NCBI RefSeq assembly: GCF_017348835.2
Contig: NZ_CP071375.1
DNA from: Escherichia coli
Lineage (GTDB): Bacteria > Pseudomonadota > Gammaproteobacteria > Enterobacterales > Enterobacteriaceae
DNA length: 64,000 nucleotides
Reading direction: 5' to 3' (one strand)
Numbering within the stretch: the stretch's first letter is position 1; every line of letters starts with the position of its first letter. Below, one piece after another: positions 20,001 through 23,000 of the stretch. Made by a program: the position numbers.

Positions 20001-23000
20001 TCTGGGGCGTGGTGAAACCGTTGGGCAAGAACTGGCGGGTAACCCAAAGGTCGCAATGGTCAGTATGACAGGCAGCGTCTCTGCAGGTGAGAAGATCATG
20101 GCGACTGCGGCGAAAAACATCACCAAAGTGTGTCTGGAATTGGGTGGTAAAGCACCAGCTATCGTAATGGACGATGCCGATCTTGAACTGGCAGTCAAAG
20201 CCATCGTTGATTCACGCGTCATTAATAGTGGGCAAGTGTGTAACTGTGCAGAACGTGTTTATGTACAGAAAGGCATTTATGATCAGTTCGTCAATCGGCT
20301 GGGTGAAGCGATGCAGGCGGTTCAATTTGGTAACCCCGCTGAACGCAACGACATTGCGATGGGGCCGTTGATTAACGCCGCGGCGCTGGAAAGGGTCGAG
20401 CAAAAAGTGGCGCGCGCAGTAGAAGAAGGGGCGAGAGTGGCGTTGGGTGGCAAAGCGGTAGAGGGGAAAGGATATTATTATCCGCCGACATTGCTGCTGG
20501 ATGTTCGCCAGGAAATGTCGATTATGCATGAGGAAACCTTTGGCCCGGTGCTGCCGGTGGTCGCATTTGACACGCTGGAAGATGCTATCTCAATGGCTAA
20601 TGACAGTGATTACGGCCTGACCTCATCAATCTATACCCAAAATCTGAACGTCGCGATGAAAGCCATTAAAGGGCTGAAGTTTGGTGAAACGTACATCAAC
20701 CGTGAAAACTTCGAAGCTATGCAAGGCTTCCACGCCGGATGGCGTAAATCCGGTATTGGCGGCGCAGATGGTAAACATGGCCTGCATGAATATCTGCAGA
20801 CCCAGGTGGTTTATTTACAGTCTTAATGAGTGAAAGAGGCGGAGGTTTTTTCCTCCGCCTGTGCGCGTCAGAGTTTAGCGAATTTTTCGAGGGTGCGAAT
20901 AAGCTGCGTGACGAAGCCATATTCGTTATCGTACCAGGCGACCGTTTTCACCAGTTGTAAATCGCCCACGGCGGTAATTTCCGTTTGCGTGGCATCAAAC
21001 ACCGAACCGAAATGGCTGCCAATGATATCGGAAGAGACTATTTCTTCATCGGTATAACCAAATGACTCGTTATTGGTGGTTGCTTGTTTAAGTGCGTTAT
21101 TCACCTCTTCGGCAGTCACTTTTTTTCCGAGAATCGATACCAGTTCAGTGACCGAACCTGTTTTCACCGGCACGCGTTGCGCATGACCTTTCAGTTTGCC
21201 GCTCAGTTCCGGGATCACCAGACCAATGGCTTTTGCCGCGCCCGTAGTGTGGGGAATGATATTTTCTGCCGCTGCGCGTGAAGCACGTAAATCTTTACCA
21301 CGCGGGCCATCCACCAGTGACTGGGTGCCAGTATAGGCATGAATGGTCGTCATCGTGCCGACTTCTATCCCGAAACTGTCATGCAAGGCTTTGGCCATCG
21401 GCGCAAGGCAGTTAGTGGTGCATGACGCCACGGAAACAATGGTGTCGTTGCCATCCAGAGTGTCGTCATTAACGTTATAAACGATGGTTTTCATTTCACC
21501 GGCAGGAGCGGAAATCAACACCTTCTTCGCGCCAGCATCAAGATGCGCCTGCGATTTCTCGGCGGAGGTATAAAAGCCAGTACATTCGACAATGATTTCT
21601 GCACCTTTCGCTTTCCACGGAATATTTTTAGCCTCTTTTTCGGCGTAAACCGCGATACTTTTCCCATTAACGATAAGTGAATCTTCCGTAAAATCAACGC
21701 TCCAGGGGAACGGACCATAGTTTGAATCATGTTTCAGCAGATAGGCGAGAATTTTTGGGGAAGTAAGATCATTAATAGCGACAACGTCTATGTTGCTTTT
21801 GACTTCAAGTAATCGACGCAACACCAGTCGACCGATACGACCAAAACCGTTAATACCAACTTTACTCATGGTTTTCTCCTGTCAGGAACGTTCGGATGAA
21901 AATTGATCCTTTCCAGGCTTAGACCAGGATGGCGGGATGGGCAATCTCCATTCTTACAGTGAAACGTAACGTACTGAAAACGGGTGAACAATATTTAATG
22001 AAATTTTGAGAAAAGCCCGTTATGTTAACGGAAAATTATGTTAAAGCAGGAAATGTTATGGAAAATAAATACTCAAGGTTACAAATCAGCATTCACTGGC
22101 TGGTCTTTTTGCTGGTTATCGCAGCGTATTGCGCAATGGAGTTTCGTGGTTTCTTCCCACGTAGCGATCGGCCACTCATCAACATGATTCATGTTTCCTG
22201 TGGCATCTCAATTCTCGTGCTGATGGTGGTTCGTCTTTTGTTAAGACTGAAATACCCAACCCCGCCGATTATACCTAAGCCGAAACCGATGATGACGGGA
22301 CTGGCGCATTTGGGACATTTGGTGATTTATCTCCTGTTTATTGCGCTGCCAGTGATTGGTTTGGTGATGATGTATAACCGAGGCAACCCGTGGTTTGCGT
22401 TTGGTATGACGATGCCTTACGCTTCAGAGGCCAATTTCGAACGGGTAGATAGCTTAAAGTCGTGGCATGAAACGCTGGCGAATCTGGGATACTTTGTCAT
22501 CGGGTTGCACGCTGCGGCCGCACTGGCACACCACTATTTCTGGAAGGACAACACACTTCTACGCATGATGCCGCGTAAACGTTCCTGAAGGATATTTAAA
22601 GAAAACGCCTGTACTAAAACCGACCCGTGGTACAGGCGAAGAATACGGGTCTACATCGGAAGCGCCTATTATATTTATTTGTATGACAAATAAAACCATA
22701 ATCCTTGCCCATACGTCCATCTGGCTTATTTTTAATCAATTCACCCGATCTTTGATCTCATCAACGGTATCAAAATAAACCAGCGTATAACGTTCAAATC
22801 GAACATAAGATTCGATAAACCATGGAGGTTATATGAAAAAACTAGCACTTATTTTGTTTATGGGAACGCTTGTTTCCTTTTATGCCGATGCTGGGCGCAA
22901 ACCCTGTTCTGGTTCGAAAGGGGGGATCTCACACTGTACGGCAGGCGGCAAATTTGTCTGTAATGATGGTTCTATTAGTGCCTCGAAAAAAACATGCACT

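Follow-up and report, generated by a model that had tools for sequence, protein, structure and literature searches.

Intact gapC of an Escherichia coli strain very probably encodes a second NAD-dependent glyceraldehyde-3-phosphate dehydrogenase

A stretch of 64,000 nucleotides from the Escherichia coli contig NZ_CP071375.1 (hereafter, the window) contains an uninterrupted gapC gene. It is highly probable that this gene is the intact ancestral allele and encodes a second NAD-dependent phosphorylating type I glyceraldehyde-3-phosphate dehydrogenase (GAPDH), which probably serves as a sigma-S-associated stationary-phase or environmental isozyme. The occurrence of intact gapC in wild E. coli (according to papers citing the 1998 report named below) and the enzyme that it encodes (PMC8615399) are already known from the literature.

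The gapC reading frame and its locus

According to the ORF listing of positions 19500-23500, gapC is a single ORF located on the minus strand (20868..21869), with an ATG start, a TGA stop and 333 unbroken codons encoding a full-length type I GAPDH of 333 aa. An earlier note on this DNA had described an uninterrupted 333-codon GAPDH gene at 20868-21869 without giving its strand, and this description is borne out by the ORF listing together with the TIGR01534 and Pfam matches presented below. The listing takes the first start codon following a stop as the beginning of an ORF, so that a longer gene in this frame does not exist. A ribosome-binding site, AGGAGA, is located 5' of gapC and ends 6 nt before the ATG. 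The gene product was 100% identical to WP_000048684.1, the product of the "gap" gene of E. coli PE164, which was annotated by PGAP as an ordinary CDS.

The gene order at the locus is aldA-gapC-cybB, gapC being convergent with aldA and divergent from cybB. The same synteny was found around the gene annotated as "gap" in K-12 W3110, CFT073 and PE164, and it identifies the gene in the window as occupying the E. coli gapC locus. The stop codon of aldA (19387..20826) is convergent with that of gapC, and the two are separated by a spacer of 41 nt (20827..20867, no strand assigned) that contains a 9-bp GC-rich hairpin, AGGCGGAGG-TTTTTT-CCTCCGCCT. In a 65-nt context, the fold of this hairpin calculated by ViennaRNA was -24.3 kcal/mol on the plus strand and -19.1 kcal/mol on the minus strand. 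We infer that it is probably a bidirectional terminator shared by the two genes. A simple terminator scan did not report the hairpin because the scan requires a T-run, which this hairpin lacks.

On the other side of the gene, the divergent gapC-cybB intergenic region (21870..22057, minus strand with respect to gapC) has a length of 188 nt and includes the 5' region of gapC with the AGGAGA sequence. In the mechanical ORF listing, cybB extends from an ATG at 22022 to 22588 (188 aa), whereas PGAP places its start at 22058 (176 aa); if the start at 22022 were used, the gapC-cybB spacer would shrink. An Rfam scan detected no RNA families overlapping gapC on either strand. Two known K-12 features were detected by the same scan, namely, the RydC sRNA (22599-22662, minus strand) immediately downstream of cybB and, at the hokB/sokB locus, the sok antitoxin RNA (23222-23373, minus strand).

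Comparison of the whole 64-kb window with the genome of the pig isolate E. coli PE164 (NZ_CP114128.1, positions 2440843-2504842) revealed 2 mismatches, neither of them in gapC, and a 25-kb piece of the window was 100% identical to PE164; the window is accordingly assigned to this strain. One of the two differences from the PE164 RefSeq record lies 12 nt before the start of paaA (position 1095, C vs. T), the other in the early part of hrpA (position 14300, A vs. C). Their source may be a different version of the assembly or a sister isolate, for example F2_81.

Several other features of the window were recorded. In the phenylacetate degradation operon, paaC (2296-3041, 746 nt) is frameshifted and paaK (9256-10569) is interrupted by a stop at codon 251; with both genes broken, phenylacetate catabolism has probably been lost, while gapC has been kept. 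Between pdxI and azoR (13285-13409), only a 72-nt gene remnant is present. In most other E. coli genomes, the match to the 25-kb query is split in two and extends over an additional 4.7-7 kb, the feature names including ydbD and ynbC, which suggests that the ydbD/ynbA-D block was deleted in the lineage of the window strain. An IS200/IS605 element (34314-36021) consists of tnpA (34314-34805, minus strand), which is interrupted by a stop at codon 75, and the adjoining gene for the RNA-guided endonuclease insQ/TnpB (34813-36021), which is intact. Positions 58087-63475 contain an orphan block of type VI secretion cargo, with vgrG, a DcrB-related gene and a small ORF annotated as Rhs. At the end of this block, a DUF6531/Rhs-like gene truncated at its C-terminus directly adjoins nhoA, an arylamine N-acetyltransferase gene truncated at its N-terminus; this suggests that a rearrangement or deletion left a junction near 63065-63074.

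K-12 lesions and the distribution of intact alleles

The orthologous gene of K-12 W3110 (gapC_1/gapC_2, b1417/b1416), which is also located between aldA and cybB, showed 98.4% nucleotide identity with gapC of the window (15 substitutions and 1 indel over 1002 nt). The K-12 gene carries a TAA stop at codon 39, an A7->A6 frameshift and an R18G change, whereas the window gene has none of the three. Codon 39 (21755..21757, minus strand) is AAA (Lys) in the window and TAA in K-12, with A and T, respectively, at gene nt 115. The A7 run at gene nt 738-744, covering codons 246-248 (21126..21132, minus strand), is A6 in K-12, where the reading frame is consequently shifted. PGAP flags the K-12 gene as "frameshifted; internal stop", and in published papers it appears as gapC_1, "interrupted" or "pseudogene" (PMC4512719, PMC4447067). 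The statement in the earlier note that gapC is a split pseudogene in K-12 is thus confirmed by two disabling lesions and by the PGAP flag. The alignment check for a hidden frameshift or stop in the window gene, carried out base by base against K-12 W3110, revealed none.

A search of complete E. coli genomes found gapC in 5417 of 5426. Recent lateral acquisition of the gene was considered and rejected: its GC content is only mildly low (47.9% vs. 50.3% for the window), and it resides at a fixed locus in these 5417 genomes, so any lateral transfer must predate the species. The 35-mer with the K-12-type TAA had exact matches in 1154 genomes and that with the K-12-type A6 run in 1046; by these counts, K-12-type lesions mark about one fifth of the genomes, and approximately 79% of complete E. 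coli genomes are without the K-12 stop. Among the genomes with K-12-type lesions are many laboratory derivatives of K-12 as well as some natural isolates. Genomes with the codon-39 stop outnumber those with the frameshift by about 108; the strain PD4, for example, has the stop alone. The pseudogene form found in K-12 is derived and belongs to one lineage; it is characterized by the codon-39 nonsense mutation, which in most of these genomes is joined by the 1-base deletion in the A7 run.

In addition, the length of gapC was compared in 40 evenly spaced rows taken from the E. coli genome matches. In this sample, 30 alleles had a length of 1002 nt, 8 were of the frameshift type (1001 nt), one contained an IS1 insertion and one was truncated. 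Sixteen of the thirty 1002-nt alleles were retrieved; 15 proved to be intact and had protein accessions, and the remaining one had the codon-39 stop. Intact gapC is the common wild-type state in E. coli, and the window strain is ordinary in this respect. According to PMC2949598, which cites Espinosa-Urgel and Kolter (1998, Molecular Microbiology), and to PMC1796617, gapC is intact in environmental isolates and expressed preferentially in fresh water, whereas it is mutated in laboratory strains. A literature search for additional reports of intact gapC returned nothing relevant.

The stop, frameshift, IS1 and truncation alleles indicate that loss of gapC is tolerated in E. coli. This raises the alternative that the ORF in the window strain is intact yet silent (cryptic), that is, a decaying gene that is open by chance only; its loss in about one fifth of complete genomes by stop or frameshift, and in others by IS1 insertion or truncation, agrees with such an explanation. 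However, mean pairwise dN/dS among the 15 intact alleles was 0.04, and the divergence of these alleles from that of the window reached a dS of 0.19 with a dN of no more than 0.007. Such a ratio, maintained over dS values up to 0.19 in diverse strains, is unlike neutral drift and represents the signature of a working gene rather than of an ORF open by chance. Judging from these substitution rates, intact gapC alleles are under strong purifying selection across E. coli. Together with the data on transcription considered below, this makes a cryptic gapC very unlikely.

Enzyme family and relation to EcGAPDH1

GapC of the window matched the type I GAPDH profile TIGR01534 (GAPDH-I) with a score of 447.7 bits against a cutoff of 367.2, residues 3-325 covering positions 1-330 of the 330-position profile. 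Both Pfam domains of the family were found, namely, Gp_dh_N (PF00044, 124 bits) and Gp_dh_C (PF02800, 195.1 bits). [quoted passage not shown] The active-site Cys motif mentioned in the earlier note is indeed present: a residue check located the catalytic Cys150 in ASCTTNC, its codon occupying positions 21420..21422 on the minus strand, and His177 is also in place, within TTIHAYT.

A search of PDB sequences with GapC returned 7C5F and 13 related entries (five distinct sequences), the wild-type form of which is identical to GapC in 332 of 333 residues over the full length. The best 60 PDB matches comprised this enzyme, EcGAPDH1, followed by 59 other solved GAPDHs, with no GapA-type chain among them. 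EcGAPDH1 (PDB 7C5F, 7C5H, 7C5P, 7C7K and others) represents the same gene and locus as gapC of the window. The catalytic and ligand-binding residues of the two proteins are all alike, and the single difference is Asp68 in EcGAPDH1 versus Asn68 in the window. Every residue named in the description of EcGAPDH1 is kept in GapC of the window (R11, I12, D34, K78, S120, C150, H177, T180, T182 and R232); among them, Asp34 belongs to the conserved NAD+-binding residues, and Thr180, Thr182 and Arg232 are phosphate ligands (PMC8615399). EcGAPDH1 turns over glyceraldehyde-3-phosphate (G3P) with NAD+, with a Km of 0.73 mM for G3P; the C150A mutant is inactive, and C150S and H177A show large losses of activity. 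Its structures were determined with NAD, phosphate, G3P and a G3P-derived thioacyl intermediate (PMC8615399). The conditions used in the EcGAPDH1 assays (50 C, pH 10) tell little about the physiological role of the enzyme.

Codon 68 of the window gene (21666..21668, minus strand) is AAT (Asn), whereas Asp is encoded in EcGAPDH1 and in the other 14 intact alleles compared. The 35-mer containing the N68 codon had exact matches in 221 complete genomes, including those of the type strain ATCC 11775, O145:H28 and APEC O18 strains. N68 is thus a naturally occurring polymorphism, carried by no fewer than 221 complete genomes. The aligned position in E. coli GapA is also occupied by Asn (LIVNGK). By analogy with the D68 enzyme, the N68 GapC of the window is predicted to catalyse the reaction G3P + NAD+ + Pi -> 1,3-BPG.

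The housekeeping glycolytic GAPDH of E. coli, GapA (PDB 1S7C/1DC4), has the same fold, chemistry and SCTTNC motif and aligns with GapC end to end. The two proteins are, however, only 47% identical and are encoded at different loci, gapA being absent from the 64-kb window; the GapA sequence used for this comparison was identical to that of PDB 1S7C. Assignment of GapC to the GapA type was rejected, its score with PRK15425 being 302.8 bits against a cutoff of 662.

As GapA already serves glycolysis, a selected paralogue suggests a differentiated role. GapC might then be mainly non-glycolytic, that is, an Epd/GapB-like (erythrose-4-phosphate dehydrogenase), arsenate-linked or NADP-dependent enzyme or a protein moonlighting at the surface, and weaker sub-threshold matches to the Epd and ArsJ-associated GAPDH models were indeed obtained. 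These scores are nevertheless far under the cutoffs, both for Epd/GapB (277.5 vs. 530.55 bits with TIGR01532; 280 vs. 539 with PRK13535) and for ArsJ-associated GAPDH (306.5 vs. 450 bits with NF033735). The neighbours of gapC are aldA and cybB, with no arsJ nearby, and Asp34 is present. Moreover, the near-identical EcGAPDH1 uses G3P and NAD+ and was crystallised with NAD and the thioacyl intermediate (PMC8615399). A specialised function of this kind is extremely unlikely, and the assignment of GapC as an NAD-dependent type I GAPDH is preferred. The suggestion of the earlier note that the strain may express a second functional GAPDH is well supported as regards coding capacity and enzyme competence, given the conserved residues, the assayed enzyme identical in 332 of 333 positions and the dN/dS value.

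Expression and possible role of GapC

A consensus scan around the gene detected no suitably placed sigma-70 promoter for gapC (2 promoters found vs. 1.8 in shuffled sequences). The lack of a strong sigma-70 match is what a cryptic gene would also show, and several data on K-12 point in the opposite direction. The spacer upstream of gapC is identical to that of K-12 in 186 of 188 positions, and a ChIP-seq peak of sigma-S RNA polymerase was assigned to gapC_1/cybB in K-12 (PMC4447067). In a chemostat transcriptome table, gapC_1 of K-12 is among the RpoS-affected transcripts with a 5.6-fold ratio, where the column was read as wild type/rpoS mutant and this assignment is a reading of the table (PMC4512719). 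In addition, as stated in a paper co-authored by Espinosa-Urgel that summarises the 1998 work, laboratory strains have truncating mutations in gapC, yet environment-specific promoter activity is retained even in these strains (PMC2949598).

Since the consensus scan performed no better than with shuffled sequences, the gapC promoter was deduced from the K-12 data; it presumably lies in the gapC-cybB spacer. On this basis, we infer that gapC is expressed in the window strain. A literature search on gapC expression or secretion in EHEC/EPEC found nothing relevant.

The mode of action proposed for the intact gene is as follows. The K-12 data and the 1998 work on natural isolates suggest that a sigma-S-associated promoter in the gapC-cybB spacer probably drives the transcription of gapC. 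From glyceraldehyde-3-phosphate, NAD+ and phosphate, the enzyme would form 1,3-bisphosphoglycerate and NADH. Catalysis would involve a thioacyl intermediate at Cys150, and His177 would act as the base, as was shown for EcGAPDH1, which differs in one residue. GapC would then be a stationary-phase or environmental (fresh water) isozyme and not the main glycolytic enzyme.

A further idea, which we consider unlikely, is that selection retains GapC in most E. coli because it does what GapA cannot, that its losses in the K-12/phylogroup A lineage reflect departure from a niche, and that the N68 form is possibly kinetically distinct from D68. If this were true, GapC could support, for example, glycolytic/gluconeogenic flux at low temperature or during sigma-S-controlled starvation outside the host, and the repeated losses in the K-12/phylogroup A lineage would mark adaptation away from that niche. 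With respect to the gapC locus itself, K-12 is atypical of the species, and metabolic models or gapA knock-out designs taken over from K-12 should reckon with a second GAPDH when applied to wild or pathogenic E. coli.
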